From NCBI GenBank assembly GCA_034667725.1, contig JAXDQS010000010.1, positions 217,937-281,936 on the forward strand: 64,000 nucleotides of DNA, read 5' to 3'. Positions 33,804-61,125 of the stretch are shown here, in pieces. The first letter of the stretch is position 1. The number at the start of each line of letters is the position of its first letter. This stretch comes from Thermoplasmata archaeon (GTDB taxonomy: Archaea > Thermoplasmatota > E2 > JACPAO01 > JAHFTW01). The position numbers and the translations under genes are program-made. The notes under the pieces are model-generated. The model had not been told where the DNA came from and made no database searches. It saw nothing but the letters and a program-made list of their open reading frames with translations.

Positions 33804-33835
33804 CCGTTCTAAGGGTGGGGGAAGTGAGAACCGCG

Positions 33836-35119
33836 ATGGAGGAGGCGGCGCCCACCGAGAGCCCCTTGCCGGGCGCCGGCGCCAAGGGCAAGCCGGTGCG
33901 CGTCCACCCCTACGCGCTCGAGCTGTCCACGGCCGCCGAGCTGCGCCGCGACCCGCGCATGGTCACCCTGTTCTGGGCCGGCCTGGGCACGGCGCTGGTG
34001 CTGCTGGGATTGGGGCTCGCCAACCGCTTCAGCCCCTGCCTGAACGGCGTCGGCCCCGAGCCCTGCGCCACCCCCGCGGCATGGACCAGCTGGGTCCAGC
34101 TTCCCCTGTTCGGCGGCCTTGCCCTGCTGGGCTTCGGCTTCGTGCAGCGCCAATGGGCCCGCCGCGTCACGCTTGCCGGCTGGCTGCTGTTCGGGTTCTA
34201 CTGGGCGCTCACCGCGCAGGACCTGTTCGTGGCCGAGGGCGGCGACATCGTCAACCTCTGCTTCGCCATCGTCGGCGTCTACTTCTTCGTCTACCTGGCC
34301 TACCACCAATGGCTCTCCGAGGCGCGCGGCATCGAGAACCTCACCGTCCGGTTCCTCAACATCGCCACCTTCGTCGCCGCCGGCTCCTACTTCGTCATCG
34401 ACAAGATCGAGCCGGTCCGCAAATGGCTCATCCTCACCGTCAGCCGCCACACCGAATGGATGCTGGGGCTGTTCGGGCAAGGCGCCGACGCCGGCCTCCG
34501 GGCCGTCTACAACCCCGCCGGCAGCACGAGCGACTTCCAGGCCGACCTGGCCCGCTTCTACTACGAGGGCCACCTCAACCACTGCCCCTCGCAGCCGAGC
34601 GACTGGTTCTCCAGCCTGATGCACTGGGACCCGTTCGCCCGCCAAGCCCTCGACGCCTGCCGCGACTTCTCGGCCCACGAGGCCGTCATCGTCCCCGTCT
34701 CGATCATCCTGGCCTGCACCGCCCTCCAGTCCATCATGCTGTTCGTCGGCCTGTTCATGGGCACCCCGGCCCCATGGAAGCGGCGCCTGCTGGCGTCGGC
34801 CATCGTCGCCGCCGTCGTGTACGTCCTCAACCTGCTGCGGAACACCGGCATCGTGTGGTTCTACGGCCAAGGCGAGGCCTCGTTCTGGATGATGCACGAC
34901 GCCGTCGGCAAGGGCGGCAGCCTGGTCGCCATGATCCTCATCGCGTTCGCCGCCTTCGCCTGGTTCCCCGAGTTCCTCAAGGCGCTCGTCGGCGTGCTGG
35001 ACCTGCCGCACCGCGACGGCCCCATCGAGCGCACGCTGCGCCTTGGCAGGCGGCGGCCCGACCAAGGCGCGCCGCCAGCGGAGCCGCCGGCCGAGACGCC
35101 GGCACCCCCCGTCCACTGA
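33836..35119 (+). CDS. Polytopic membrane protein, candidate exosortase/archaeosortase-family enzyme
   Basis: 427 aa, ~8 TM helices. Cys293 sits in a TM helix (SIILACTAL) and NLLRN lies 42 residues later, reminiscent of the archaeosortase catalytic Cys/Arg arrangement recalled from the literature. Family assignment is tentative. Confidence 0.4.
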   Translation: MEEAAPTESPLPGAGAKGKPVRVHPYALELSTAAELRRDPRMVTLFWAGLGTALVLLGLGLANRFSPCLNGVGPEPCATPAAWTSWVQLPLFGGLALLGFGFVQRQWARRVTLAGWLLFGFYWALTAQDLFVAEGGDIVNLCFAIVGVYFFVYLAYHQWLSEARGIENLTVRFLNIATFVAAGSYFVIDKIEPVRKWLILTVSRHTEWMLGLFGQGADAGLRAVYNPAGSTSDFQADLARFYYEGHLNHCPSQPSDWFSSLMHWDPFARQALDACRDFSAHEAVIVPVSIILACTALQSIMLFVGLFMGTPAPWKRRLLASAIVAAVVYVLNLLRNTGIVWFYGQGEASFWMMHDAVGKGGSLVAMILIAFAAFAWFPEFLKALVGVLDLPHRDGPIERTLRLGRRRPDQGAPPAEPPAETPAPPVH

Positions 35120-35177: not shown

Positions 35178-38100
35178 ATGGGCTGCAAACGGTCAAGAAG
35201 GCACGGCGGTCGCTGGGCCTTGACAATGGTCGTCCACCGCTTGTCCCCGCTCGCCGCTGCCTTCATCCTGGCAGTCTCCACCCTCGCCGCCGCGCCGGCG
35301 TCGGCCCTCATCGTCGGCCCCGTCGGCCCCATCGACCCCGACCTCATCAACGTAGACTGCGAGGACAGTGCCGCCGTTAGGGCCGCCTGCAACGCGGTGG
35401 CCACCCTCACGGAGGACCCTGGCGAGATCACCGTCGGGTGCGGCGACGGGTACGCCGGCAACGCCTGCCGCGAAGCCTTGGACACCCTCGAGGACCCGCC
35501 CGCGGCCTGCGAGGCCGTCACGTTCGCGATCTGCGAGGCGGTGGCCCGGCTGCTGGCCGACGACGGCGGCGACCCCGTCGGCCAGTGCCTGCACGACCTC
35601 GGCTTCGACACCGTCGTGATGCCCCAGCCCGGCACCAGCATCGTCAACCTGGACTGCTCGCAGCTTGGCGAGACCCTGGCGAGCCTCTACGTCATCCTGG
35701 ACAACCTGGCGGCGCGGGGCGGCGCCACCCTGAACTCCTGCCTGGCGCTGTTGGGCGACGGCATTGCCAACCTGGAGTCGAGCGGCCCGCCACTGGTGGA
35801 TTGCGAAGGCCTCGGCGAGACCGCCCGCGACACCGTCCAGGCCGCCATGGACCTGGTGGACCGCGAAGCCGACGACGCCATGCGCACCGTCGAGGCGTGC
35901 GTCTACGGCGCGCCCCCGCCGTCCGCCGGCGCCGCGCTGTGCCGCTCCCTCTACAACACGCTCGTCCTCTACCTCGCCTTCGCCGTCCAGACCGGCCTCC
36001 AGGCGGCCAACCACCAGCTTGAGTGCCAAGGCCTCGACACCGTCTCCATCACGGCGCCCGCCCCCGAGGGCGACCCGCCCGCCACCTTCGGCCTGCCGGA
36101 GGAGTGCGTGACCGCCCACCTGCTCTTGACCGCCGTCCAGGAGGCCGTCGCCAACGTGCTGCGCATCGCCGGCGACCTCGCGCCCTCCGTCTCGCTCTGT
36201 GTCGCCGAGGTCCCCGGCGGCCCCACCACCGTCACCCTCGACTGCCGCTACGTCGAGCGCGTCGTGCGCACCGTCGGCGACGCCGAGGCCACCGTCATGC
36301 TCGTCGTGCAGCAATACCTCGACGACTGCCAAGGCCGCGGCGCGCCCCCCGAGGGCCTGCCGAGCTGCCGCGAGCAGGTCGAGAACCTGCAGCGCATCGT
36401 GGACCGCAACTTCGCCGGCGCCTGGCGTGCCGCCCAGGAAGCCGCCGCCGACCTGCAGGCCTGCGCCGCGGCCGCCGCCGCGAGCACCTGCGCGGCCACG
36501 CAAGACTGCGCCCTGCTGCCCTGCGTCCTGCCCGGCGCCTGCGACACCGGCTGCGCCAGCAACGGCACCACCTCCTACCCGGCGCGCGCCAACGGCACCG
36601 CCACCGACGCCCGCATCGGCAACGTCTTCGAGTTCGTGGCCCCCGTCACGGGCGCCGCGGTCCCGGTCGACGTCCACGACTACGACGGGGACGGCATCCC
36701 CGACCTGCTGGACCCCGTCAACCTCCCCTCCGAGACCCTGCGCACGACCTCCGGCGCCGACAACCTGACGCTGCTGGACGGCCTCGGCGAGCAAGGCTTC
36801 GTCCTCTTGATCGAGCCCGGCCACCGGGAGGCCCAGCTCGTGGCCGCCGACCCGCTCGGCGTGGCCCTGTCGCTGCTGCCCGTCGAGGTGCTCGACGCCG
36901 CCACCACCCTCCAGCTTTTGGGCCAGACCCACGGCGGCCACGTCGCCGACCTGCTGGCCAGCGCCCTCAACGAGAACATGACGGTGAACGTCACCTGGGT
37001 CGTCCCGCAGCTGCCCACCGTCGTCCCCCTGCATTGGGCCGGCGGCGCCATCCCCGCCGACGGCAGCTGGCTCATGGCCCGCTCCGACCCGACCCGCCGC
37101 GTCACGTTGGCGCTCTCCGGCCTTGACGTCAAGCTGGAGGCCCCCAGCGCCAGCCACGCCAGCACCGACCCCGACCTGTCGTACCGCTGGGAGTTCCTCA
37201 ACCTCTGGGGCAAGAAGGGCTTCTGCTTCGACCCCACCACCTACACCGGCGGCACCGGCCAGTGCGAAGGCAAGGCCGAGCCCGGCTGGCTGCGCGCCTA
37301 CAGCGGCCGCGCCCACTACGCCCTCCAGGCCGTCGCCGAGAACCTGGAGCGCGGCCTGTCCGACCTGGCGGCGACCCCGGCGGGCACCAACGGCACCGCC
37401 CTGGAGCCCATCCTGGCGCCGACCGAGGGCCTGCGCGGCGACGAGGTCCCCGCCGACGCCATCGACCTGTTCGACCCCTCCTCGCTGGTGCACGCCATCG
37501 GCGACAACAGCACCTCGTTCCCGCCCGGCGTCGGCGTCGACTACCAGGTCCCGGCCCGCGAGCCGCGCTCCCTGCCGCGCCCCGCCATCCTGCAAGCCCC
37601 CGACGCCCTGCTCACGACCGACGTGGACCTGTCGGCCTACCGCCCGACGCGCACCTTCCGCTTCGACGCCCAGTTCTACGAGACCCCCGGCACGCCGCGC
37701 GACCTGCAGCTGCTGACGCTGCACATCACGCCGGCCGACGGCAACGACGCCGCCCAGACCTTCGTGCTCGACGGCCGCGCCTTCACGGAGTACCTGCGCC
37801 TGCTGCCCGGCGAGCAGCTCGCCCTCGATATCGACGCCGATCACTTGGACGGCTTCGTCCAGGTCTCCAAGGACGTCAACGCCGACGGCTGGGAGGACCT
37901 CGTCGTGCAGGTGCCCCACTTCAGCACCGTCACCATGGACGTCCACAGCGACAACTCGATCGCCTACCCCATGTGGACCATGGTCAAGATGACCAGCGCC
38001 ACCGAGGGCTGGCTCACCGGCCCTTACGGCGCCATGTACAAGTACAGCGCCGGCCGCGTCTACCGTCACGACATCCCCGGCCTCGCGGGCCAGATGCGCT

Positions 38101-41100
38101 CCATCGCGCTGCACGTCGTCGGCCCCAACGACGTCTGGGTGGCGGGCGACGGCGACTGCAACCTCGCCGACCCGTCGCCGTTCATCGCCCACTACTACTA
38201 CGGCAGCTGGAGCATCTTCCGCACGTCGCAGGTCGGCCCCGGCTGGGCCTGCGAGGGCTTCATCACCATCTGGATGGACCCCACCGGCTCCTTCGGCTAC
38301 GCGGGCGGCACCGACGGCATGTGGTTCAAGTACGCCAGCGGCGCGTGGAACCCCGCCCCCAGCCCCGCGCCCGGCGCCTGCGTCCGCGACATCGCCTTCG
38401 ACAGCAGCGGCCGCGGCTACGTCGGCGCCAACACCGACTTGTGCCTGGCCAGCGGCCGCCCCGCCATCAGTTACTGGGACGGCAGCTCGTGGAGCAGCCA
38501 CAGCACCTACGGCAGCACCGAGATCTGGAGCGTCATGGACGGCTCCGGCCAATGGGCCGCCGCCATTCCCAAGGACCCGGCCACCCACGGCATCCTGCAA
38601 CAGTCCGGCTCGTCCTGGTCCCTCGCCTCCGTCCCCGTTCCGGCGGGCCATTACTACGGCATGACGCGCGCGCCCGACAGCCGCCTCTGGTTCAGCGCCA
38701 CCGACCGCAGCAACCGCGGCTTCCTGGTCGAACGCGACCCGTCCGGCACCTGGACGACGCACTGGTTCCAGACCCGCATCGGCTTCCTGCGCGACGTCTC
38801 GATGTCGTCCAGCACGGCGGGCCTCGTCGTCGGCGACAAGAACATCCTGGCCATCCAGGTCTCGTCGGCCGCCGCCGCCTCCGCCGACTGGATCTGGGAC
38901 AGCCTGTCGCCGACCTCCGGCACCACCAGCACGACGTTCGCCGGCCGCGACTCCGGCACCCGCGACCCCGACAGCGGCAGCGGCACCGTCGCGCACACCT
39001 GGAACTGGGGCGACGGCTCGGCCAACGACCTGGCCGCCAACGCCGACCACGTCTACCAGGCGCCCGGCACCTACGCCGTCACCCACCAGGTGCGTGCCAG
39101 CAGCACCGGCCAGGCCAACGCGCACGGCTGGACCGTCACGGTGAACCCCCAGTCCACCAGCATCGGCCCCAGCACCTCGGACTCGCTGCCCGCCGGCACC
39201 CGCGTGGCCCCGAAGTACTACCAGTACACCAACGCGGCCAGCGACGGCCAGGCGCATGACTTCCGCGTCGTGCTCGGCGGCGCTGCCGGCGTCAAGATGA
39301 CGATCCGCAAGGGCACCGGCATGGGCGACTTCAGCGCCGGCGGCAACTGGCCCAACTACGGCGCCGCCGGCCGCGACCTGTCCGGCCCCATCGCCTACGG
39401 CCAGTCCATCACCATCCGGGTCGAGCAGGACACCAGCGTGAGCCCCTACGGCGGCTCCTACACCCTCACGGTGACGCAGCTGCCGCCCCCGCCCAACCCG
39501 GCCTTGAGCAGCCTGGTGCCGCAGCCGATGGAGGCGCTGACCCGCGGCTACGAGGAGCTGACGTTCCGCGTCACCTGGACCGACACGCAAGGCTACCAGC
39601 CCCGCGACGCCAGCGGCGCCACCAGCCCGCCCACCATCACGCTGGACACCAACGGCGACGGCGCCCTGGAGACCTACTCCATGCACCTGGACCGGCCGCT
39701 GTTCACCGGCTCCACCTACAAGGCGATCTACTCGTACTCGACCTACCTCAAGGAAGGCAGCGGCACCCAGCCGATCTACAAGGCTTGGGACACGCAGCCC
39801 TACCAGCAGGTCGCCACCGGCGCCTGGATCTACGCCCGCGCCACCGTCCTCAAGGCCTACGACTTCGAGGCCGACGCCGTCGACCGCCTCCCGGCAGGCT
39901 TCGCCAACGTCCCGCTGGCCGGCCACCCGGTGAGCTACTGGCACGTCACCGACACCGCCAAGGCGGGCACGCCCGACCGCGTCGCCTTCGGCGCGCACGG
40001 CAAGGCCCTCTGGTTCGGCCAGGAGTCCTCCGGGAACTACGTCGACGCCGACGGCCGCGCCCCGGGCGGCGCCCTCGAGACGCCGGTGCACGACCTGAAC
40101 CGCATGGACAAGCCGGTGCTGTCGTTCGCGTCGCTCTACGAGACCCAGGACGACGGCAGCAGCATCGACGTCAAGCAGGTCCACATCAAGGCCCGCGACC
40201 CCGGCGGCGTCTGGGGCGGCTGGGTGCTGCTGCAGGCCGTCCACGGCCCCGGCTTCCTGCCCGGCCGCTGGAACACCGTGGCCGCCAGCCTCGCCGACTA
40301 CGCCGGCAAGGAGGTCGTGCTGCGCTTCCAGTTCCAGGCCGACAACGCCAACAACGGCTACCTCGGCTGGTACGTCGACGACATCGTGCTCGGCAGCGAC
40401 GCCGACGGCGACCTGATCCCCGACCTGAAGGAGGCCAACCGCGTCATCGGGCTCCGCAACGGCGCCGTCGGCCCCGTCAACGTCGCCCCCGGCCAGACCG
40501 GCGCCAGCTACGTCAACCGCGTCAGCACCTCCGGCTTCCAGGGTGTCGTCGCCGAGGCCGTCCTCTACTCCGAGCGGCCGCAGGACCTGCGCGTCGAGCT
40601 GCTGGTGCCGCCGGCGGGCACGCTCCCCGGCGACTTCCCCGCGCTCACGACCGAATTCCGGCCGTTCAAGCTGAACCCGGCCGCGGCGCCCGCCACCGAC
40701 ACGGTGTGCGGCGTCACCAGCCCGGTGCGCAACTCCCTGTCGCCCTGGTACGCGACCTACCCGAACCTGCTCTTGGACCCCGCCACCGGCTTCGACAACC
40801 CCCGCATCGGCGGCGGCTTCGGCCCCGACTCGCGCCCGACCGTCGTGCCGATCCACGCCCTGGAGTTCAAGCGGGTCGACGGCGTCGGCCTTGCCATCAA
40901 GGCGGACCTCACCGAATGCCTCAAGGCCGCCGGCTTGAGCGAGTTCGGCGTCCACGACGTCGTGCTGCGCGTCCAGAACACCGCCGCCTCCGGCACCGCG
41001 ACCATCGAGTCGTTCGCGGTCACCGGCGTCGGCCGGTCGTCGATGTTCAGCGCCCGCAGCGCCGCCATCGGCATGGGCGACTACCGCGCCAGCGACGGCG

Positions 41101-42806
41101 GCTGGCTGGGCGGCGGCACGCCGCTGGGCCCCGACGCCGACTGGGACGGCATGGCGCGCGGCGAGGACGGCAACGACATGGTGCCGACCTACGTGCCGTT
41201 GGTCTTCGTCGACTACAACAAGCCCGAGGAGGGCCTGCAGTTCGCCCTCGACAGCAAGCGCGTCGTGCTGTCCGTCGACATCCTGGCCACCACCGGCACC
41301 ACCACGCGCGACGTCGCGACCCCGGTGGCCCAGGCCTACGGCGAGTGGCGCAACTACGTCCTGCCGGCCAGCCGGTTCGCCGGCGCCGACAGCCTGCGCA
41401 TCGTCGTCAGCCTGGCCGGCGGCTCGGTCATGACCATCGAGGCGGCCTTCAAGGACCGCCAGCCGCAGCTGGCCAGCCTCACCGAGTCCTTCCTGGCCGA
41501 CCCCGGCAACCCCTCGCCGGAGCCTGGCAGCCACTACCTGACCGACGCCGAGCGCAACCTCGGCTACATCATGGGCGGCGCCAAGGCCCTCTACTGGGTC
41601 TACAAGGCGGGCAAGCTCATCACGGGCGTCGGGGCCGCCGAGACCGCCCTCGAAGGGGCCACCCTGGTCGTCAAGACCGTCGGCAAGTGGGCCATCGTCA
41701 AGGTCGCCAAGGAGGGCCTCAAGTCGGCCTACGCCTCCAGTGGCGAGCTCACCATCTACGAGAAGACCTCGCGCCACAACATCTACAAGGGCCGGACCTC
41801 GCGCGGCGACTACCCCGAGGTCTACGACCTCTTGGACGAGGCCATCACCAACGCCCAAGGCCCGTACCCCACCATCGGCGGCAACAACGTCTGGTTCTAC
41901 GAGAAGGCGGTGGACCCGTCGACGGGCGCCATCGCCAAGCTCTACGTGCTGGAGACCCGCCAGGACGGCGACCTGTTCCGCGGCTGGGGCCACTCGCTTG
42001 CCAGCTGGGGCCAGATGGTGTCGCGGCCCTACACGGCCGGCGCGGACGCCAACACCGTCCACGCCACCGACGTCTCGGACATCCAGAGCATCGAGCGGCT
42101 GGCCAAGGTCGCCGGCCCGTACCCGAGCTTCGGGAGCTTCCTGTGCGCCGTCACTTGCTATGCCGAGGTGGACGGCGACCCCGGCCGCGTCCACCTGCAA
42201 GCCTACGGCGTCAACTGGGACAACCGCCACGACAGCAAGCTCGACGTCGACGCCGGCTGGGTCACGGCGGCGCGCTACGCCGCCTACCGCCCGAACTCGT
42301 GGGTGCCTTCCATCAACGAGGGCCAGCGCGACCTCCAGCTCGCGGGCTGGATCCGGTCGTACCGCTTCATCCACGACAACGGCGTCCACGCCTCGGCCTC
42401 GCAGGACGCGAAGGCCTTCTGGGGCGACGACTACGCCTCGAACCCAGGATGCGCTGCCGAGACCACGCGCCGCTGCCAGGCGCCGACCGCGACCTTCGAC
42501 GGCCACGGCGTCTTCGCCCAGGGCTTCACCCTGCGCTGGACGACCTCGTCGAGCCCCACGGTCCTCAAGACCGACAAGGCGGCCAGCTTCGGCCTCTACA
42601 CCAACTCCGACCGCGGGCCCTGGGATGGCCGCTCCGGCATCGAAAAGAGGCGCGACACCCTGGCGACGTCGCTCGGCACCCCGGGCTCCGGCCATGACGC
42701 GAACCTCATCCTGGCGCTCGACGCCAGCGGCGCCACCTGGGAGGACGACCACTACTACCCAGAGTACGGCCCGCACACCTTGGAGGAGTTCTACGACGTC
42801 CCGTAG
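35178..42806 (+). CDS. Giant secreted multidomain protein (~2540 aa)
   Basis: Single uninterrupted frame. Signal peptide, Cys-rich helical N-terminal ~450 aa, propeller-like W/Y/G-rich repeats, a PKD-like domain (TVAHTWNWGDGSANDLAANADHVYQAPGTYAVTHQV), a GWYVDDIVLG motif and a ~600-aa K/Y/I-rich C-terminal module. The antisense ORF is low-complexity. Confidence 0.7.
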   Translation: MGCKRSRRHGGRWALTMVVHRLSPLAAAFILAVSTLAAAPASALIVGPVGPIDPDLINVDCEDSAAVRAACNAVATLTEDPGEITVGCGDGYAGNACREALDTLEDPPAACEAVTFAICEAVARLLADDGGDPVGQCLHDLGFDTVVMPQPGTSIVNLDCSQLGETLASLYVILDNLAARGGATLNSCLALLGDGIANLESSGPPLVDCEGLGETARDTVQAAMDLVDREADDAMRTVEACVYGAPPPSAGAALCRSLYNTLVLYLAFAVQTGLQAANHQLECQGLDTVSITAPAPEGDPPATFGLPEECVTAHLLLTAVQEAVANVLRIAGDLAPSVSLCVAEVPGGPTTVTLDCRYVERVVRTVGDAEATVMLVVQQYLDDCQGRGAPPEGLPSCREQVENLQRIVDRNFAGAWRAAQEAAADLQACAAAAAASTCAATQDCALLPCVLPGACDTGCASNGTTSYPARANGTATDARIGNVFEFVAPVTGAAVPVDVHDYDGDGIPDLLDPVNLPSETLRTTSGADNLTLLDGLGEQGFVLLIEPGHREAQLVAADPLGVALSLLPVEVLDAATTLQLLGQTHGGHVADLLASALNENMTVNVTWVVPQLPTVVPLHWAGGAIPADGSWLMARSDPTRRVTLALSGLDVKLEAPSASHASTDPDLSYRWEFLNLWGKKGFCFDPTTYTGGTGQCEGKAEPGWLRAYSGRAHYALQAVAENLERGLSDLAATPAGTNGTALEPILAPTEGLRGDEVPADAIDLFDPSSLVHAIGDNSTSFPPGVGVDYQVPAREPRSLPRPAILQAPDALLTTDVDLSAYRPTRTFRFDAQFYETPGTPRDLQLLTLHITPADGNDAAQTFVLDGRAFTEYLRLLPGEQLALDIDADHLDGFVQVSKDVNADGWEDLVVQVPHFSTVTMDVHSDNSIAYPMWTMVKMTSATEGWLTGPYGAMYKYSAGRVYRHDIPGLAGQMRSIALHVVGPNDVWVAGDGDCNLADPSPFIAHYYYGSWSIFRTSQVGPGWACEGFITIWMDPTGSFGYAGGTDGMWFKYASGAWNPAPSPAPGACVRDIAFDSSGRGYVGANTDLCLASGRPAISYWDGSSWSSHSTYGSTEIWSVMDGSGQWAAAIPKDPATHGILQQSGSSWSLASVPVPAGHYYGMTRAPDSRLWFSATDRSNRGFLVERDPSGTWTTHWFQTRIGFLRDVSMSSSTAGLVVGDKNILAIQVSSAAAASADWIWDSLSPTSGTTSTTFAGRDSGTRDPDSGSGTVAHTWNWGDGSANDLAANADHVYQAPGTYAVTHQVRASSTGQANAHGWTVTVNPQSTSIGPSTSDSLPAGTRVAPKYYQYTNAASDGQAHDFRVVLGGAAGVKMTIRKGTGMGDFSAGGNWPNYGAAGRDLSGPIAYGQSITIRVEQDTSVSPYGGSYTLTVTQLPPPPNPALSSLVPQPMEALTRGYEELTFRVTWTDTQGYQPRDASGATSPPTITLDTNGDGALETYSMHLDRPLFTGSTYKAIYSYSTYLKEGSGTQPIYKAWDTQPYQQVATGAWIYARATVLKAYDFEADAVDRLPAGFANVPLAGHPVSYWHVTDTAKAGTPDRVAFGAHGKALWFGQESSGNYVDADGRAPGGALETPVHDLNRMDKPVLSFASLYETQDDGSSIDVKQVHIKARDPGGVWGGWVLLQAVHGPGFLPGRWNTVAASLADYAGKEVVLRFQFQADNANNGYLGWYVDDIVLGSDADGDLIPDLKEANRVIGLRNGAVGPVNVAPGQTGASYVNRVSTSGFQGVVAEAVLYSERPQDLRVELLVPPAGTLPGDFPALTTEFRPFKLNPAAAPATDTVCGVTSPVRNSLSPWYATYPNLLLDPATGFDNPRIGGGFGPDSRPTVVPIHALEFKRVDGVGLAIKADLTECLKAAGLSEFGVHDVVLRVQNTAASGTATIESFAVTGVGRSSMFSARSAAIGMGDYRASDGGWLGGGTPLGPDADWDGMARGEDGNDMVPTYVPLVFVDYNKPEEGLQFALDSKRVVLSVDILATTGTTTRDVATPVAQAYGEWRNYVLPASRFAGADSLRIVVSLAGGSVMTIEAAFKDRQPQLASLTESFLADPGNPSPEPGSHYLTDAERNLGYIMGGAKALYWVYKAGKLITGVGAAETALEGATLVVKTVGKWAIVKVAKEGLKSAYASSGELTIYEKTSRHNIYKGRTSRGDYPEVYDLLDEAITNAQGPYPTIGGNNVWFYEKAVDPSTGAIAKLYVLETRQDGDLFRGWGHSLASWGQMVSRPYTAGADANTVHATDVSDIQSIERLAKVAGPYPSFGSFLCAVTCYAEVDGDPGRVHLQAYGVNWDNRHDSKLDVDAGWVTAARYAAYRPNSWVPSINEGQRDLQLAGWIRSYRFIHDNGVHASASQDAKAFWGDDYASNPGCAAETTRRCQAPTATFDGHGVFAQGFTLRWTTSSSPTVLKTDKAASFGLYTNSDRGPWDGRSGIEKRRDTLATSLGTPGSGHDANLILALDASGATWEDDHYYPEYGPHTLEEFYDVP

Positions 42807-43938
42807 CCGCGCCCTCTTGGCCGTCGCGGCGGCGCTGCTGCTGGCCGGCTGCCTGGGGTCGGTGGACGACGGCAGCCAGGCCCCGCCGCCGGACGCCTGC
42901 GCGGACGGCGTGCCGCCGTGCGTCCGCAACGCCGACGCCGAGCTGCTGGAGGCCAAGTACGGCTTCCGGCAACTCAGCAACGGCACCGGCCGGCCGCTCC
43001 AGCCGTGGGTCACGAACGGCTTCGCCGGCTGGTCGGTGTTCTACTCGGACGCCTCCCCCCGCGTGGACCTCGCGGCGCGGACCCTGGCGGAAGATGACGA
43101 CGACGGCGCGGCCCGCGGGCTCACGCTGGCGGCCGGCGGCAAGGTCGCCTACACCTTGACGCCGCTGGCCAACGACGCGCTCGACCACGCCCACGCCCGC
43201 CTGCTGCTGCAGGACGCCGCCACCGGCGAGGCCACGCCCCTCGTGGAGGACCGCGGGCTGTATCCTCGCGCCTTCGGCCCGCCGTGGCTGCTGCTGCAAG
43301 AAGACAAGGGCGACGGCGCGCCGCGCGACCTCTGGGCCCTCCACGTCGAGACGCGGGCGCTGCAACTGGTCTCCGACCGCAGCGGCGAGGCCCACGGCGG
43401 CCCCGTCGTGACCGGCCACGCCGTCGCCGGCCACCACGCCGTCTGGGCCGAGGCCGAGCCCCAGCCGGACGGAAGCTTCGCCTACTCGGTGCGCACCCGC
43501 GACCTGGAGGCCCAAGCCGACGGCCCGACGTTCCGCGTCGCCGGCGGCGGCGAGGTCGACTGGATCGCCAGCACCGGCGCCGCCGCGGCCATCCTGGTCG
43601 GCCACGACGCGGGCGCCGACCTTTTGCTCTTCGACCCCGCCACCGGCCAGGCACGCCCGCTGGGCCCCGAGCCCGGCTGGAACGCGGTGCTCGCCGCCGC
43701 GGGCGGCGGCGCCGTCGTCGTGGCCGAGCGCCGCGGCGACGACGAGGCCCGGCTGCGCCTCATCCGCGCCGACGGCACGTCGGAGGCGCTGGCGGACCTG
43801 GAGGAGCTGGCGGTGGCGTCGATGGCCACCGACGGCCACGACCTCGTGCTGGTGGCCTACGCGTCGCCAAGCCGCGGCCTGCGCTACGAAGGCACCCAGG
43901 TCTACTGGAAGCCGCTCGACCTCGGCAATCGCGCTTAA
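42693..43938 (+). CDS. Putative lipoprotein (beta-rich), start uncertain
   Basis: Lipobox LLLAGC after a basic n-region (TSRSRALLAVAAALLLAGCLG). The only upstream in-frame ATG (42693) overlaps the giant gene's 3' end by 113 nt in another frame; a TTG at 42816 is the alternative. Confidence 0.45.
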
Positions 43939-43941
43939 GAG

Positions 43942-44598
43942 TTGCACCTCCGTCGCGCCGCCGTGGCGCGCTTTGCGCGGGGGTCCGCCCCCTGGCTGCT
44001 GGCCCCCGTGACCCTCGCGGTCGTGCTGGTGGCCTACGGTCTGCAGTCGAAGGACGTCTGGCCGTTCGTCGCCGCGGTCCTGCCGCTCTTGGTGTTCGCG
44101 TTCTTCATCGTGTTCTTCCGCGACCCCGACCGCCTGGCCTCGGAAGGCATCGCGAGCCCCGCCGACGGCACCGTGAGCTTCATCGACGAGGTGGACGACC
44201 CCGACCTCGGCCGGGTCGAGCGCTTCTCGATCTTCATGTCGCCTAAGGACGTCCACGTCAACCGCTACCCGGTGGACGGCACCGTCGTGTCGGTGCTGCA
44301 CAAGCCCGGCGGCCACGTGCCCGCCTTCAACAAGGAGGCCGAGCGCAACGAGCGGGTCGAGACCCTGCTGGCCACCGCCCACGGCCGCGTCAAGGTCATC
44401 CAGATCGCCGGCACCGTGGCCCGCCGCATCGTGCCCTACCACAAGGCCGGCGAGGCCGCCGTCAAGGGCGAGCGCTTCGGCCTCATCCGCCTCGGCTCGC
44501 GCTGCGACATCCTGGTCGCGCCCGGCACGGTGCGCTGGACCGTCCCGCCCGGCACCCAGGTCTACGCCGGCACCACCAGCCTGGGGGCGTTCAAGTGA
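43942..44598 (+). CDS. psd: Archaetidylserine (phosphatidylserine) decarboxylase proenzyme, short form
   Basis: 218 aa; N-terminal membrane helices, Psd-like core and a near-C-terminal GTTS motif consistent with the self-cleavage site of short PSDs. Confidence 0.65.
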   Translation: MHLRRAAVARFARGSAPWLLAPVTLAVVLVAYGLQSKDVWPFVAAVLPLLVFAFFIVFFRDPDRLASEGIASPADGTVSFIDEVDDPDLGRVERFSIFMSPKDVHVNRYPVDGTVVSVLHKPGGHVPAFNKEAERNERVETLLATAHGRVKVIQIAGTVARRIVPYHKAGEAAVKGERFGLIRLGSRCDILVAPGTVRWTVPPGTQVYAGTTSLGAFK

Positions 44599-45443
44599 CC
44601 CAGCCGCCGCCCGGCGCCCCTGGCGCCCCCGCCGCGGGCGACGGCGACACCTGGCGCGGCTACTTCCGCGCCGCCCTGCGCGACGAGTGGGACGGCCTCG
44701 ACCGCATCAACCGCGACCTCCGGCTGGCGGACCTGTTCACGCTCACCAACGCCCTCATGGGCCTCGCCGCGCTGCTGCTGATCGCCACCGCGCCCTACGA
44801 GGCCCGCTGGGACCGCATCCACCTCGCCATCGAGCTGGTCCTGGTCGGCGTCATCATGGACGGCGTCGACGGCGCCGTGTCCCGCATGGGCAAAGGCAAC
44901 GGCCCGCTCGGCGCCGTCCTCGACACGCTCGCCGACGCCTTGACCTTCGTCGCCACCAGCGCCGTCGTCACCTTCGTCTTCATCGACACCGCCCGCGGCG
45001 GCGAGACCGACCCGTTCCTCGACCGCTGGGGCAGCCTGCTCGCCCTCGGCTTCTACGTCGTGTGCGGCCTGCTGCGCCTGGCCCGCTTCGAGTCGCTCCG
45101 GGACACCGGCAAGCCCCGCGACTACTTCTCCGGCATCCCGACGCCCGCCGCCGCCCTCATGCTGCTGGCCATGGTGCTGGTCGAGTCGCCCGACTGGCTG
45201 CTGCTGTCGGCCGCGTTCGTGCTCGGCATCCTCATGACGACCCGCGCCCGCTACCCGAAGATCCGCGGCTGGATCGCCGTCGGCACCGTCGCCATCCTGC
45301 TCGCCATCCTCGTGAGCTTCAGCAACCCCGACTTCCAGGCGTGGCTCGCGCGCGGCCTCCTGGCCCTCATGGCGCTCTACGTCCTTGCCGGCCCCTTCGT
45401 CGTGCTCGCCCGCCACGGCGCCAACTTCCCGGGGTCCCGGTAG
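44595..45443 (+). CDS. pssA: CDP-alcohol phosphatidyltransferase (archaetidylserine synthase-like)
   Basis: DGxxAR...G...G...D...D signature in DGVDGAVSRMGKGNGPLGAVLDTLADALTF; multiple TM helices. Start overlaps the psd stop. Confidence 0.75.
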   Translation: MTQPPPGAPGAPAAGDGDTWRGYFRAALRDEWDGLDRINRDLRLADLFTLTNALMGLAALLLIATAPYEARWDRIHLAIELVLVGVIMDGVDGAVSRMGKGNGPLGAVLDTLADALTFVATSAVVTFVFIDTARGGETDPFLDRWGSLLALGFYVVCGLLRLARFESLRDTGKPRDYFSGIPTPAAALMLLAMVLVESPDWLLLSAAFVLGILMTTRARYPKIRGWIAVGTVAILLAILVSFSNPDFQAWLARGLLALMALYVLAGPFVVLARHGANFPGSR

Positions 45444-45444
45444 G

Positions 45445-46896
45445 ATGCCCAAGGCCCCGCGCCAACGACGCACCAGCATCCGCACCGCCAGCGACGCCGT
45501 CCAAGACCAGTACGTCGCCCGCATCCGCGCCCTCGCCGACGACCCCACCGTCGTGCTCCCCGAGCCCGTCGGCCCCGAGCACCCCGTCCTTGCCAAGCTG
45601 CGCCGCCGCCTAAAGGCCGGCAAGCTCCCCGTCACCGCCCGCTTCGACAAAGGCCTCGTCGGCGCCGTCCGCGTCGCCCTGTCCCTCGCCGACGTCGACT
45701 CGGCGCCCCGCATGGTGGACGCCCGCGTCGACGGCAACCGCCGCTTCTACCTCCAGCGCGGCCACGTCGTCCGCCTGTGCAACCTCGGCGTCCAGAACTG
45801 GGACGACCCCCTCAGCCTGATGCTCGCCTACGGCCGCCTCGCCCCCAAGCACGGCCTCCACCTGTTCGCCGGCGACAAGCTCTGGTGCAGCGGCGCCAAG
45901 CCCAACCCCCCGCCCGAATGGTTCGCCGCCCTGGCCCGCCGCACCGGCGTCCCCCTCACCCCCAACGACGACGGCGCCGCCTGCCCGCACGGCGACCGCC
46001 CCCGCCTCGAGCTCCGTATGCGCAACGGCCCCGCCCTCCTCGTGTGCGGCCCCTGCGGCGCCAAGTCCGCCAGCGGCGGCATGAACCTCCACGGCCACCT
46101 CCTGCAACGCTACCTCAGCGACCGCCCCGCCCGCCCCGTCGAGCTCGCCGTCCGCCTCCCCGACGGCAAACGCCACGACCTGCCCGACACCCTCCAGGCC
46201 AGCTACCGCGCCGGCCGCGCCGACGAAGCCGCCATCCTCGAGGTCGCCCTCCAGGCGTTCCACGGCTCGCGCGCCGACGGCGGCTACGTCGCCGCCGGCC
46301 GCACCTACCCCACCCAGTCCGCCTTCCTCGACGCCCTCGGCCTCGCGCCCTGGGAAATGGAGGCCGTCCGCCGCATGACCGCCGACGGCCACATCGGGCC
46401 CAGCCTCGACGTGCCCGTGGTGCTGGCGGCGCACGCCGACAAGCTGCCCGAGGCCGTCGAGGCGCTGCTGCCCGGCGACGGCGCCGCGTTCGCAAGGAAG
46501 CACGCCGGCACCGAGGCGCGGACTTTGCTGCGGATGGCGCACGACGAGGCGCAACGGCGGGCGCGGACCCGCGACTTGCCTGTGCTGGAGGGCGTGGGCC
46601 CGTTGGGGCAGTGGATGGACGCGTTCGTCCGGCAGGCGCGGACTTTGGACCGCGGCGAGCTGCTGCAACAAGTCCGCAAGGAGATCGGCAACCCACGGCA
46701 CCCGGCGCACCTGTACGCTTTTTTGTGCGCGGCGGGATTGGAAAGCGAGGGGGAACGGAGCTTCACCTTGGACCAAAGGGAGGCCGGCAAGCACTGGTCA
46801 GGCGCTGCGGCGAAGGTGATGGCTTCCACTGGTGAAGGGTATCGGCTGGCCGTGCTGGAGTATCTCAGGGAGACGGGGGCGGGGGAGGGGGCGTAG
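45445..46896 (+). CDS. Hypothetical protein with Cys cluster
   Basis: 483 aa; CSGAKP...CPHGDRP...LVCGPCG suggests a metal-binding site. No family recognised. Confidence 0.45.
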   Translation: MPKAPRQRRTSIRTASDAVQDQYVARIRALADDPTVVLPEPVGPEHPVLAKLRRRLKAGKLPVTARFDKGLVGAVRVALSLADVDSAPRMVDARVDGNRRFYLQRGHVVRLCNLGVQNWDDPLSLMLAYGRLAPKHGLHLFAGDKLWCSGAKPNPPPEWFAALARRTGVPLTPNDDGAACPHGDRPRLELRMRNGPALLVCGPCGAKSASGGMNLHGHLLQRYLSDRPARPVELAVRLPDGKRHDLPDTLQASYRAGRADEAAILEVALQAFHGSRADGGYVAAGRTYPTQSAFLDALGLAPWEMEAVRRMTADGHIGPSLDVPVVLAAHADKLPEAVEALLPGDGAAFARKHAGTEARTLLRMAHDEAQRRARTRDLPVLEGVGPLGQWMDAFVRQARTLDRGELLQQVRKEIGNPRHPAHLYAFLCAAGLESEGERSFTLDQREAGKHWSGAAAKVMASTGEGYRLAVLEYLRETGAGEGA

Positions 46897-46958
46897 TCCC
46901 CTCCGCTTCGACGGCCTCTCCCCTCCCCTTCAAATCCCGTTCCCCCCTCAAGCCCGCC

Positions 46959-59221: not shown

Positions 59222-59274
59222 GCCGGCAGCCCCCGGCGACAACCGTTAAGGGCGAAGGCCGCCGTCGGCCGCAT

Positions 59275-61125
59275 ATGCGCCTTGGCGCCATCCTTCCCGT
59301 CGCCCTCCTGGGCCTTGCCCTTCTCGCCGGCTGCACGCAGCCCGAAGCCGAGCCGCCCGTCGCCCAGGACGAGCCCCGCCTGGTGCCCGTCGCCGAGCGC
59401 AACGGCCTGCCGTACAACGTCACCGGCTACTACTCGCGCACCTTGGTGGACGGCGTCCTCGGGATGCTGCCCGTGGAGTCGGTGTTCGTCGACGTCGAGC
59501 TGCCCGCCACCGAGGGCGGCGCCGCCTTGATGGGCGGGGCCCGCGTCCACATGGGCCTGTGGCGCCCGAACGTGCCCGCCGGTACCAAGGTCCCCGTCAT
59601 CGCGGACATCGGCCCGTACTACGGCGACTCCGACGACCCCGCCGTGAGTCCGGCGCACCGCCTGGGCGGCTTCCTGATCGAGAACTTCGTCCCGCACGGC
59701 TACGCGGTGGCCCAAGTGTCGGTGTTCGGCTCCGGCCTCTCCAACCACTGCATGGACCTCATGGGCAACGCCGAGCAGCTCGGCATCGACGCCGCCGTCA
59801 CCTGGCTCGGCACCCAGGAGTGGTCCAACGGCAAGGTCGGCCTCGTCGGCCGCAGCTACGACGGCTCCACCCCATGGGAGGCCGCCACCTTCGGCAACGA
59901 GCACCTGGCCACCATCGTCCCGATCTCCGGCCTCATCGGCATGCACGACCTGATGTGGCGCAACGGCAGCGCCGAGACCCGCGGCCCCATCATGCACAAC
60001 GTCGTCTACGGCACCTTCGGCATCGACACGCCCGACCCCACCGGCCCCGAGGGCCCGCAGGTGGACGACGGCGAGATGGTGGAGAACCTCCAGACCCTCT
60101 GCCCCGACTACGTCGCCGGCCTGCCCGAGGGCGCTGGCGCCACCGTCACCGGCGACCAGGTCGTCCCCGCCGTCAACCCGTACTGGGCCGAGCGCAGCTT
60201 CCTGCCGCGCGCCCTTGCCAACTACAAGGGCTCGGTGTACCTCATCCACGGCCTGCAGGACTGGAACGTCGACCCGCACATGGCGTTCCCGACCTACCAG
60301 AAGCTAGAGGCCGCCGGCCTGGAGGTCAAGGGGCTGTTCGGCCAATGGAACCACATGTACCCCGACCGCCCCAGCGAGCACGTCAGCACCCCTGACGGCG
60401 AGGGCCACGAGGCCTACCCCGCCTCGGTGCGCTACGACTGGGCCCAGGACCTGCTGGAGTGGTTCGACCACTACCTCATGGGCGACCCGCTGGCGCCTGC
60501 CCTCCACGCCGAGGTGCAGGACAACCACGGCGCCTGGCGCGTCGAGGCCACCTACCCGCCCGCCGACGCCACCCCGCTGGCCATCGGCCTCGACGCCGCG
60601 ACCAGTGTTGCGCCCAATGGCGCCGCCGCCCCCGCCGGCCAGCCCATCGTCAGCCCGAACGACGGCATGGCCCTCGCGTTCGCGCCGCTTGCCGCCGACA
60701 CCCGCATCGCCGGCCTGCCCACCTTGCACGTCCAGGTCACACCCACCGGCCCCGGCGGCCAAATCTACGCCGAGCTGACCGACGTGGCGCCCGACGGCAA
60801 GACGCTGCGCCTCGGCCACGCCATCATGGATCTTCGGTTCGCCGCCGGCGGCACCGAGGCCCAGCCCGTCACCCCCGGCATGCCGCTCGTGGCCCGCATG
60901 GAGTTCGAGGCGTTCGACGCCGTCGTGCCCGCCGGCCACAGCCTCCGCCTGGAGCTGGCCGGCTTCGGCCGCGACTACCTGCCGAGCGCGGTGTCGGCGC
61001 CGGTGCTGGTGGACCTGTCGGCCGCCAGCGTGCTGACCCTGCCCACCATCGAGCGCGGCGCGGAGGCGTTCTTCACGCCGCCGGCGTGGTCGGGCGAGGC
61101 CGAGGCGACCGCGCAGGAACCGTAG
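59275..61125 (+). CDS. S15-family (CocE/NonD, X-Pro dipeptidyl-peptidase-like) hydrolase lipoprotein
   Basis: Lipobox LLAGC; GRSYDG nucleophile elbow (GxSYxG) in an alpha/beta-hydrolase context; C-terminal beta-sandwich region. Confidence 0.6.
   Translation: MRLGAILPVALLGLALLAGCTQPEAEPPVAQDEPRLVPVAERNGLPYNVTGYYSRTLVDGVLGMLPVESVFVDVELPATEGGAALMGGARVHMGLWRPNVPAGTKVPVIADIGPYYGDSDDPAVSPAHRLGGFLIENFVPHGYAVAQVSVFGSGLSNHCMDLMGNAEQLGIDAAVTWLGTQEWSNGKVGLVGRSYDGSTPWEAATFGNEHLATIVPISGLIGMHDLMWRNGSAETRGPIMHNVVYGTFGIDTPDPTGPEGPQVDDGEMVENLQTLCPDYVAGLPEGAGATVTGDQVVPAVNPYWAERSFLPRALANYKGSVYLIHGLQDWNVDPHMAFPTYQKLEAAGLEVKGLFGQWNHMYPDRPSEHVSTPDGEGHEAYPASVRYDWAQDLLEWFDHYLMGDPLAPALHAEVQDNHGAWRVEATYPPADATPLAIGLDAATSVAPNGAAAPAGQPIVSPNDGMALAFAPLAADTRIAGLPTLHVQVTPTGPGGQIYAELTDVAPDGKTLRLGHAIMDLRFAAGGTEAQPVTPGMPLVARMEFEAFDAVVPAGHSLRLELAGFGRDYLPSAVSAPVLVDLSAASVLTLPTIERGAEAFFTPPAWSGEAEATAQEP

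Follow-up and report, generated by a model that had tools for sequence, protein, structure and literature searches.

In Sulfolobales, SlaA and SlaB form a two-gene arrangement in which a large outer surface protein is encoded beside a smaller, membrane-anchored tether. A second way of holding proteins at the archaeal surface depends on archaeosortase A (ArtA): in Haloferax volcanii, ArtA-dependent lipid anchoring needs PssA and PssD, and the synteny of artA, pssD, and pssA is known from Methanosarcina (PMC7157517). Lipidation of H. volcanii lipoproteins depends on AliA/AliB (arCOG02177), with gaps noted for that arCOG in Thermoplasmata (PMC12462473). A known annotation phenomenon also bears on what follows, as downstream genes that are extended too far 5′ can seem to share a long overlap with a neighbor on the same strand (Palleja et al. 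2008, PMC2478687). Here, we describe a lipoprotein gene on the + strand of a 64-kb stretch (the window, 72% G+C) from a metagenome-assembled genome (MAG) of a Thermoplasmata archaeon. The gene directly follows a giant secreted-protein gene, and both lie inside an artA-pssD-pssA cluster. Taken as a whole, the locus is best explained, with a moderate degree of likelihood, as encoding a genuine propeller-like lipoprotein that starts at a TTG codon, forms the downstream half of a conserved cassette, and acts as partner of an anchor-less giant protein.

A two-member family of archaeal lipoproteins

The lipoprotein gene is real. Its frame, +1 relative to the giant gene, is open on the + strand from 41740 to 43938 and reads ...MTRTSSWRSTPAAPPGRTTTTTQSTARTPWRSSTTSRSRALLAVAAALLLAGCLGSVDD...; from 42817 onward, G+C at the three codon positions (GC1/2/3) is 0.76/0.56/0.97, a clear coding composition, and the product of 42817–43938 is identical to GenBank MEA3191264.1 (QOD77_1846, 373 aa). 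A lipobox, L-A-G-C, follows the hydrophobic segment AVAAALLL, with upstream residues ...TSRSRALLAVAAALLLAGC. From these features, the product is predicted to be a secreted, lipobox-bearing archaeal protein of ~360 mature residues that would be lipidated. Readthrough or a frameshift fusion with the giant protein is improbable: the two frames differ in the window, and the signal peptide and lipobox indicate a separate protein.

Among 1.8 billion cluster representatives, searched exhaustively with HMMER, there was a single relative, P0002 (391 aa, E = 5e-7, 28–31% identity), encoded at a locus that we call L002. It aligns end to end, with its M1 against the M1 encoded by TTG 42817. Every LAGC column is identical in the two proteins, and two Cys residues besides the lipobox Cys are conserved. 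A word-indexed profile search gave no new family members, and contigs from metagenomes and genomes, scanned with profiles of the lipoprotein or of the giant C-terminus, likewise yielded nothing, in collections that exclude the source metagenome of L002. A further word-indexed search, with the C-terminal 1001 aa of the giant protein (39801–42803), returned zero matches, self included, and is uninformative on homologues. The lipoprotein itself had no match in Pfam at E <= 5, in NCBIfam, or among PDB sequences at E <= 10, and no paralogue within the window. The family is new, tiny, and uncharacterised, with two known members, and is otherwise of a familiar kind, that of an archaeal lipoprotein co-encoded with a large surface protein.

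The samples behind loci L001, L003, L012, and L002 (SRR24887408, SRR24887266, JGI 3300044738, and JGI 3300044834) are runs or metagenomes with neighboring accession numbers. Both family members probably come from one study or habitat, and the window genome is base-identical in two samples. P0003, at L012, was considered as a close strain for substitution analysis and discarded, its sequence being identical.

Structure prediction was performed with AlphaFold2 on a two-sequence alignment. The resulting model is all-beta, with ~24 strands, and its top 50 Foldseek matches in the PDB are almost all beta-propellers (among them Kelch, TolB, and acylaminoacyl-peptidase propellers). The sequence carries recurring blade-like motifs, LLLQDAATG and LLLFDPATG of the hydrophobic-x-D-x-x-T-G type and also LWALHVETR; no propeller repeat-family profile or sequence from Pfam, NCBIfam, or the PDB matched. 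Judging from the model, the fold is probably a beta-propeller. Against this stand the low confidence of the model (predicted local distance difference test [pLDDT] score of 47.7), template modeling (TM) scores of only ~0.3 for the propeller matches, and the still poorer model of P0002 (pLDDT 36).

Start codon and supposed overlap with the giant gene

An earlier note on this DNA, made from the letters alone, had the lipoprotein start at an ATG within the 3′ end of the giant gene, where the two genes would overlap by 113 nt. Its reasoning was that the lipobox and a basic n-region, TSRSR, required an upstream start and that this was the only in-frame ATG. The lipobox and the frame were as described, and the ATG itself lies one base further on, at 42694 (a codon beginning at 42693 would not be in phase with the stop at 43938). 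The choice of start was wider than supposed: 42694 is the nearest ATG, those at 42625 and 42160 also fall within the open frame, and TTG 42817 is another possible start. Across its 7.6 kb, the giant gene has four ATG codons in the +1 frame; three of them (42160, 42625, and 42694) lie within the last 650 nt, each derived from a rare T-ending giant-gene codon (TAT, GAT, and CAT). GC3 of the giant gene is slightly lower at its 3′ end.

We place the translation start at TTG 42817, 10 nt after the giant-gene stop and with no long overlap, and regard this placement as probable, though by no means secure. The composition of the supposed extension is the first line of evidence. Over 42694–42816, GC1/2/3 is 0.39/0.93/0.68 in the lipoprotein frame versus 0.66/0.34/0.95 in the giant frame; the lipoprotein-frame values read as the giant frame shifted by one base, and the extension therefore carries no coding signature. 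We then scored codons by log-odds (coding versus +1-shifted frame), with +1-frame segments of the giant gene as the negative control (mean −2.39, standard deviation 0.43 bits/codon). The 36 overlap codons scored −2.13 bits/codon, at the 70th percentile of those control segments. Directly after TTG 42817, the score was +1.79 bits/codon, and true-frame segments never fell below +0.98. The residues of the extension (T/R/S/P/A/G/W) match the composition of that frame throughout the giant gene, and no sign of coding constraint in both frames was found across the overlap.

Gene calls and the homologue agree with this placement. The GenBank, JGI, and Logan calls all start at TTG 42817, giving 373 aa. 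At L002, the upstream stop (TAG 2963–2965) is in frame with the ATG of P0002 (2978), which makes an overlap impossible there, and this single orthologue shares neither an extended N-terminus nor an overlap. UUG is among the start codons accepted for archaea (PMC7531240). An ATG-only criterion is unfit for the host genome because 5 of the 14 called genes in this stretch start with GTG. pssA, too, starts with a GTG, which lies inside the GTGA overlap with pssD, and its homologues align from residue 1. The argument from TSRSR proved weak as well: P/A/S/T/R make up 86% of the residues in the +1 frame of the giant gene, R by itself 14%, and 23% of the 6-residue windows in that frame hold at least two K/R, so an Arg-rich stretch arises there by chance and carries little information.

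Several observations nonetheless count against the TTG. The protein that it starts (N-terminus MAVAAALLLAGC) would have an unusually short and uncharged signal peptide, MAVAAALLLAG followed by Cys12, with no K/R, compared with the classical signals of P0002 (MTKMQPLPLLLALMLGLGALAGC; Cys23, K3) and of a second lipoprotein encoded in the window at 59275 (Cys20, R2). The latter provides an example of a normal lipoprotein signal in this host. TTG is also the rarest start (1 of the 14 called genes). Furthermore, only 4.6% of positions in the frame would be expected to have an open in-frame ATG among the 41 codons before them, since such an ATG needs a T at a giant-gene third position; ATG 42694 owes its T to a rare His codon, CAT, in a gene with 97% GC3.

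The last of these points would favor a start at ATG 42694, the nearest canonical ATG. Translation from there would yield a precursor of 414 aa whose signal peptide, 52 residues long with a basic n-region of 39, supplies ahead of the h-region the basic residues that are absent with TTG, and the overlap would be true. However, the extension that it adds is compositionally frame noise, and the lipobox Cys would come to stand at residue 53, beyond the usual 15–35. No Shine-Dalgarno (SD)-like, AT-rich, or promoter-like element lies 5′ of this ATG, which sits inside an actively translated frame; no gene caller picked it, and the homologue at L002 cannot overlap its upstream gene. We consider this start unlikely. 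The length of 113 nt given in the earlier note is correct for an overlap from ATG 42694, but composition, codon score, homologue, and gene callers all speak against such an overlap being real, and of the two circumstances that the same note had named as refuting its finding, one, a non-canonical start near 42816 without overlap, probably applies in the form of TTG 42817, and the other, a lack of conserved synteny with the giant gene, does not apply.

The gene pair and its junction

The arrangement of the two genes is conserved. P0002 is encoded 12 nt 3′ of a gene whose product has 987 aa or more, the L002 contig ending within that gene. The product matches the C-terminal ~1000 residues of the giant protein in colinear fashion, with 31% identity in a stretch of 435 aa and a further colinear block. 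The layouts are alike, with stop, 12 nt, and ATG at L002 and stop, 10 nt, and TTG in the window, and the genes downstream differ between the two. Adjacency is therefore kept in divergent genomes and in different contexts, at two independent loci. Both genes at L002 occupy the same frame, TAG plus four codons apart (2963–2980, TAG GAG CCG CCC TGC ATG). The spacers of both loci have a GCCCT motif in common, close ahead of the start codon.

The synteny supports a functional partnership of the lipoprotein with the giant protein, as far as gene order can indicate one. Partnership, with processing, anchoring, or an immunity-like function as candidate roles, had been proposed in the earlier note from tight coupling through the overlap; that ground gives way to a 10-nt gap, and conserved synteny takes its place, with both family members following giant-gene homologues and the pair absent as a unit in relatives. 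Two points weigh on the other side: the interaction between giant protein and lipoprotein is deduced from genetic linkage only, and the synteny comes from a single independent second genome.

The junction is compatible with coupled expression. No terminator-like site was found on the + strand between the two genes, and the RNA fold at the junction was not more stable than shuffled sequences (z = +0.55). With the TTG start, the 10-nt gap is within the distance of coupled pairs (overlap or <= ~14 nt on one mRNA), and on this ground the two genes may be partly coupled. In H. volcanii, reinitiation is still 40–60% efficient at +13/14 nt and falls to roughly zero at 22 nt (PMC10666635). The window agrees at 100% identity with a Logan contig (11.3 kb) and with a JGI contig (21.1 kb compared), and an assembly error at the junction was ruled out because the GenBank, Logan, and JGI sequences are base-identical.

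Adjacency might alternatively be meaningless, in that the lipoprotein is a surface protein of no relation to the giant gene and shares the inserted segment with it by accident. Only two independent loci are known and the lipoprotein matches no known family, both of which suit this idea, as would independent transcription from a possible AT-rich internal promoter, GTTCTA, ~29 nt 5′ of the TTG, which resembles the artA element. We gave that hexamer no weight: the + strand has 10 copies of it, most of them Phe-Tyr codons, and it is for this reason likely a chance match. Moreover, both family members lie 10–12 nt 3′ of homologous giant-gene ends despite ~28–31% identity and differing downstream contexts. 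We find meaningless adjacency quite unlikely.

One oddity remains at the junction, in that no canonical start yields a normal lipoprotein signal peptide. Classical lipoprotein signals have K/R within the first ~7 residues and Cys at ~15–35 (PROSITE-type rule). Both P0002 and the 59275 lipoprotein conform to this rule. The TTG-started protein departs from both parts of it and the ATG 42694-started protein from the part on Cys position; only initiation at one of two in-frame ACG codons, 42793 and 42796, satisfies both, with Cys19/20 and an Arg within the first seven residues. Such a near-cognate start would create an 11–14 nt overlap; alternatively, an ancestral ATG may have been lost there, with TTG 42817 taking over. 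The ACG codons lie 6–9 nt after GGAGG (42782–42786), an ideal SD spacing, and the C at 42794/42797 occupies a giant-gene third codon position under strong GC3 pressure, where a T-to-C change would be silent (GAT to GAC and TAT to TAC). Still, ACG is not an established archaeal start, one review of the subject giving AUG, GUG, and UUG only, with no “ACG” or “near-cognate” (PMC7531240). GGAGG precedes 3 of 160 (~2%) +1-frame ACG codons; GGAGGAG is most simply read as L-E-E codons because SD motifs are not used at the 14 called starts; and basic residues ahead of the lipobox are expected by chance in the +1 frame. On the ancestral ATG, the three assemblies are identical and so hold no variation to inform it. 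We regard initiation at ACG, present or past, as very unlikely. It is because of the contrary signal-peptide, ACG, and 4.6% points that we rate TTG 42817 no higher than probable, with ATG 42694 unlikely and ACG more unlikely still.

The cassette in its cluster and among known systems

Next to its partner, the giant protein is the larger half of the pair. It begins MVVHRLSPLAAAFILAVSTLAAAPASA, with a Sec-type signal peptide, and contains 36 Cys residues, one PKD domain (PKD_4 match) that also matches the ColH PKD in the PDB, and an InhA-like_MAM domain within the conserved C-terminal part. No second transmembrane-like stretch or C-terminal anchor was seen beyond the signal peptide. Its gene has a third-position G+C of 0.94–1.00 in the + strand frame. 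A minus-strand open reading frame (ORF) that mirrors it (35193–43013, 2606 aa) was rejected as a compositional artefact because its codon-position G+C fails to coincide with the GC3 peak.

The order of genes is a TroA-like gene (minus strand), artA, 106 nt, the giant gene, 10 nt, the lipoprotein gene, 24 nt, a pssD-like gene, a 4-nt overlap, a pssA-like gene, 1 nt, the conserved ORF that we call orfX, and SRP54 (Table 1). ArtA identity to the window protein is 49–65% in five relatives and 33% in a sixth (L009). In L006, artA-pssD-pssA-orfX is contiguous, as is artA-pssD-pssA in L009, and in L008 a ~1.1-kb stretch that carries an ORF for a small membrane protein separates artA from pssD, with pssA and orfX coming next. 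Neither the giant gene nor the lipoprotein gene is present in the relatives' artA loci, including L006, L008, and L009, where the artA flank reaches pssD. A gcTTAA...CCTCCGT...GTG arrangement 5′ of pssD is common to the window and to L006, which lacks the insertion. Because relatives' clusters lack both genes and L006 shares the pssD element, the pair is, by comparison of gene order, an 8.8-kb cassette inserted between artA and pssD. The conserved orfX keeps its position in L004, L006, and L008 (44–57% identity) and may belong to the ArtA/PssA/PssD system as a component so far overlooked.

Location in this cluster does not imply that the two proteins are ArtA substrates, as neither has a PGF-CTERM: no match to the PGF-CTERM model was found for either, and the C-terminal PGF, hydrophobic helix, and basic tail of an archaeosortase A substrate are missing from both. 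The C-termini read ...HTLEEFYDVP for the giant protein and ...KPLDLGNRA for the lipoprotein, and neither has a hydrophobic stretch.

Table 1. Coordinates of the lipoprotein gene, the giant gene, and other features of the window
Feature	Position	Strand	Details
Lipoprotein gene, best-supported form	42817..43938	+	373 aa, TTG start, TAA stop
Lipobox L-A-G-C	42841..42852	+	Cys codon 42850-42852; Cys12 of TTG-started protein
Spacer	42807..42816	+	10 nt, giant-gene stop to TTG 42817
Proposed overlap	42694..42806	+	ATG 42694-42696 to giant-gene TAG 42804-42806; 113 nt
GGAGGAG then in-frame ACG ACG	42782-42788 / 42793-42798	+	Possible near-cognate or former ATG start, giving M(T)SRSRALLAVAAALLLAGC
Giant secreted-protein gene	35226..42806	+	2526 aa from ATG 35226; stop TAG 42804-42806
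artA, archaeosortase A	33836..35119	+	NCBIfam TIGR04125, 123.5 bits vs cutoff 75; Pfam Exosortase_EpsH
pssD-like archaetidylserine decarboxylase	43963..44598	+	Pfam PS_Dcarbxylase 1e-38; NCBIfam anchor_synt_D / AS_decarb below cutoffs
pssA-like archaetidylserine synthase	44595..45443	+	NCBIfam archae_ser_T / anchor_synt_A below cutoffs; GTGA 4-nt overlap with pssD
orfX, conserved ORF	45445-46896		483 aa, 1 nt after pssA, no Pfam/NCBIfam match
Promoter-like element of pssD	43933..43953	+	GCTTAAGAG (43933-43941) ... CCTCCGT; contains lipoprotein TAA stop; right insertion edge
Second lipoprotein	59275-61125		616 aa, signal MRLGAILPVALLGLALLAGC, same LLAGC
AT-richer element	33806-33814		GTTCTAAGG; ~25-35 nt 5′ of start codon
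AT-richer element	35186-35196		GGTCAAGAAGG; ~25-35 nt 5′ of start codon
AT-richer element	46925-46935		CTTCAAATC; ~25-35 nt 5′ of start codon
AT-richer element	59245-59253		CGTTAAGGG; ~25-35 nt 5′ of start codon

Beyond the cluster, no tRNA or Rfam matches were found in the 64-kb window, and no consistent SD motif precedes the 14 called starts. The AT-richer elements 5′ of several starts suggest TATA-like promoters and mRNAs that are mostly leaderless or have a very short leader. A salt-in halophilic lifestyle as the cause of acidic proteins was ruled out, the cytoplasmic proteins not being acidic.

We propose that the cassette would be transcribed from the promoter-like element 5′ of the giant gene, placing both genes on one mRNA. 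The lipoprotein would be translated from TTG 42817, partly by reinitiation of ribosomes that terminate 10 nt upstream, giving roughly coordinated synthesis of the two proteins. Once exported and lipid-modified at Cys12, it would hold its propeller on the outward-facing side of the membrane, where it would most likely dock, tether, or help to assemble the anchor-less giant protein. A bolder version makes the cassette a surface-display module, gained in one piece and now placed within the artA-pssD-pssA operon, in which a giant PKD/MAM protein is held non-covalently by a dedicated propeller lipoprotein as an alternative to archaeosortase anchoring, with export by an 11-residue uncharged signal or through ACG initiation; in this full form, we think it quite unlikely.

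The locus matters for annotation and for surface biology. At 72% G+C and 97% GC3, frames shifted from the coding one run on without a stop for hundreds of codons, and a search confined to ATG starts will therefore produce false long overlaps; the same open frames yield Arg/Ser/Thr-rich peptides that resemble signal-peptide n-regions. Since every canonical start leaves it with an abnormal signal peptide, the lipoprotein gene is a test case for archaeal start choice and for the minimal signal peptide. The cassette, known from two genomes only among ~15 billion proteins and inserted in an archaeosortase lipid-anchoring cluster, could show how wall-less or poorly known Thermoplasmata retain very large surface proteins.

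Compared with described cases, the supposed overlap resembles the mis-extension of Palleja et al. in that it appears only if the 5′ end is moved out to a more distant ATG, the extension is missing from the homologue, and there is no coding signal. It is less clear-cut, as the signal peptide from the shorter start is atypical here and the upstream ATG is expected by chance at only 4.6%. The lipoprotein is like the Sec- or Tat-exported lipobox lipoproteins of Euryarchaeota in its hydrophobic N-terminal segment ending in LAGC, which is kept in the homologue, and in its euryarchaeal (Thermoplasmata) host, from a group predicted to be rich in such proteins; it differs in having only 11 residues before the Cys and no K/R when started at TTG. 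With TolB, Kelch, and peptidase-S9 N-terminal propellers, it shares an all-beta prediction, Foldseek matches, and blade-like motifs, but no sequence match to them appeared at lenient thresholds, and the likeness is read at pLDDT 48 and TM ~0.3.

The cluster corresponds to the described artA-pssD-pssA cluster (PMC7157517), with the gene order of Methanosarcina and the relatives and with the cassette inside it. The giant protein and the lipoprotein differ from PGF-CTERM substrates in lacking both PGF-CTERM and a C-terminal hydrophobic tail, and the relatives' clusters are without the cassette. The SlaA/SlaB pair is alike by arrangement, and its tether has a C-terminal helix and a coiled-coil stalk where our lipoprotein would have an N-terminal lipid and a propeller-like fold. 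What the two share is a plan: an anchor-less large secreted protein followed, in the same operon, by a smaller protein attached, here by prediction, to the membrane.

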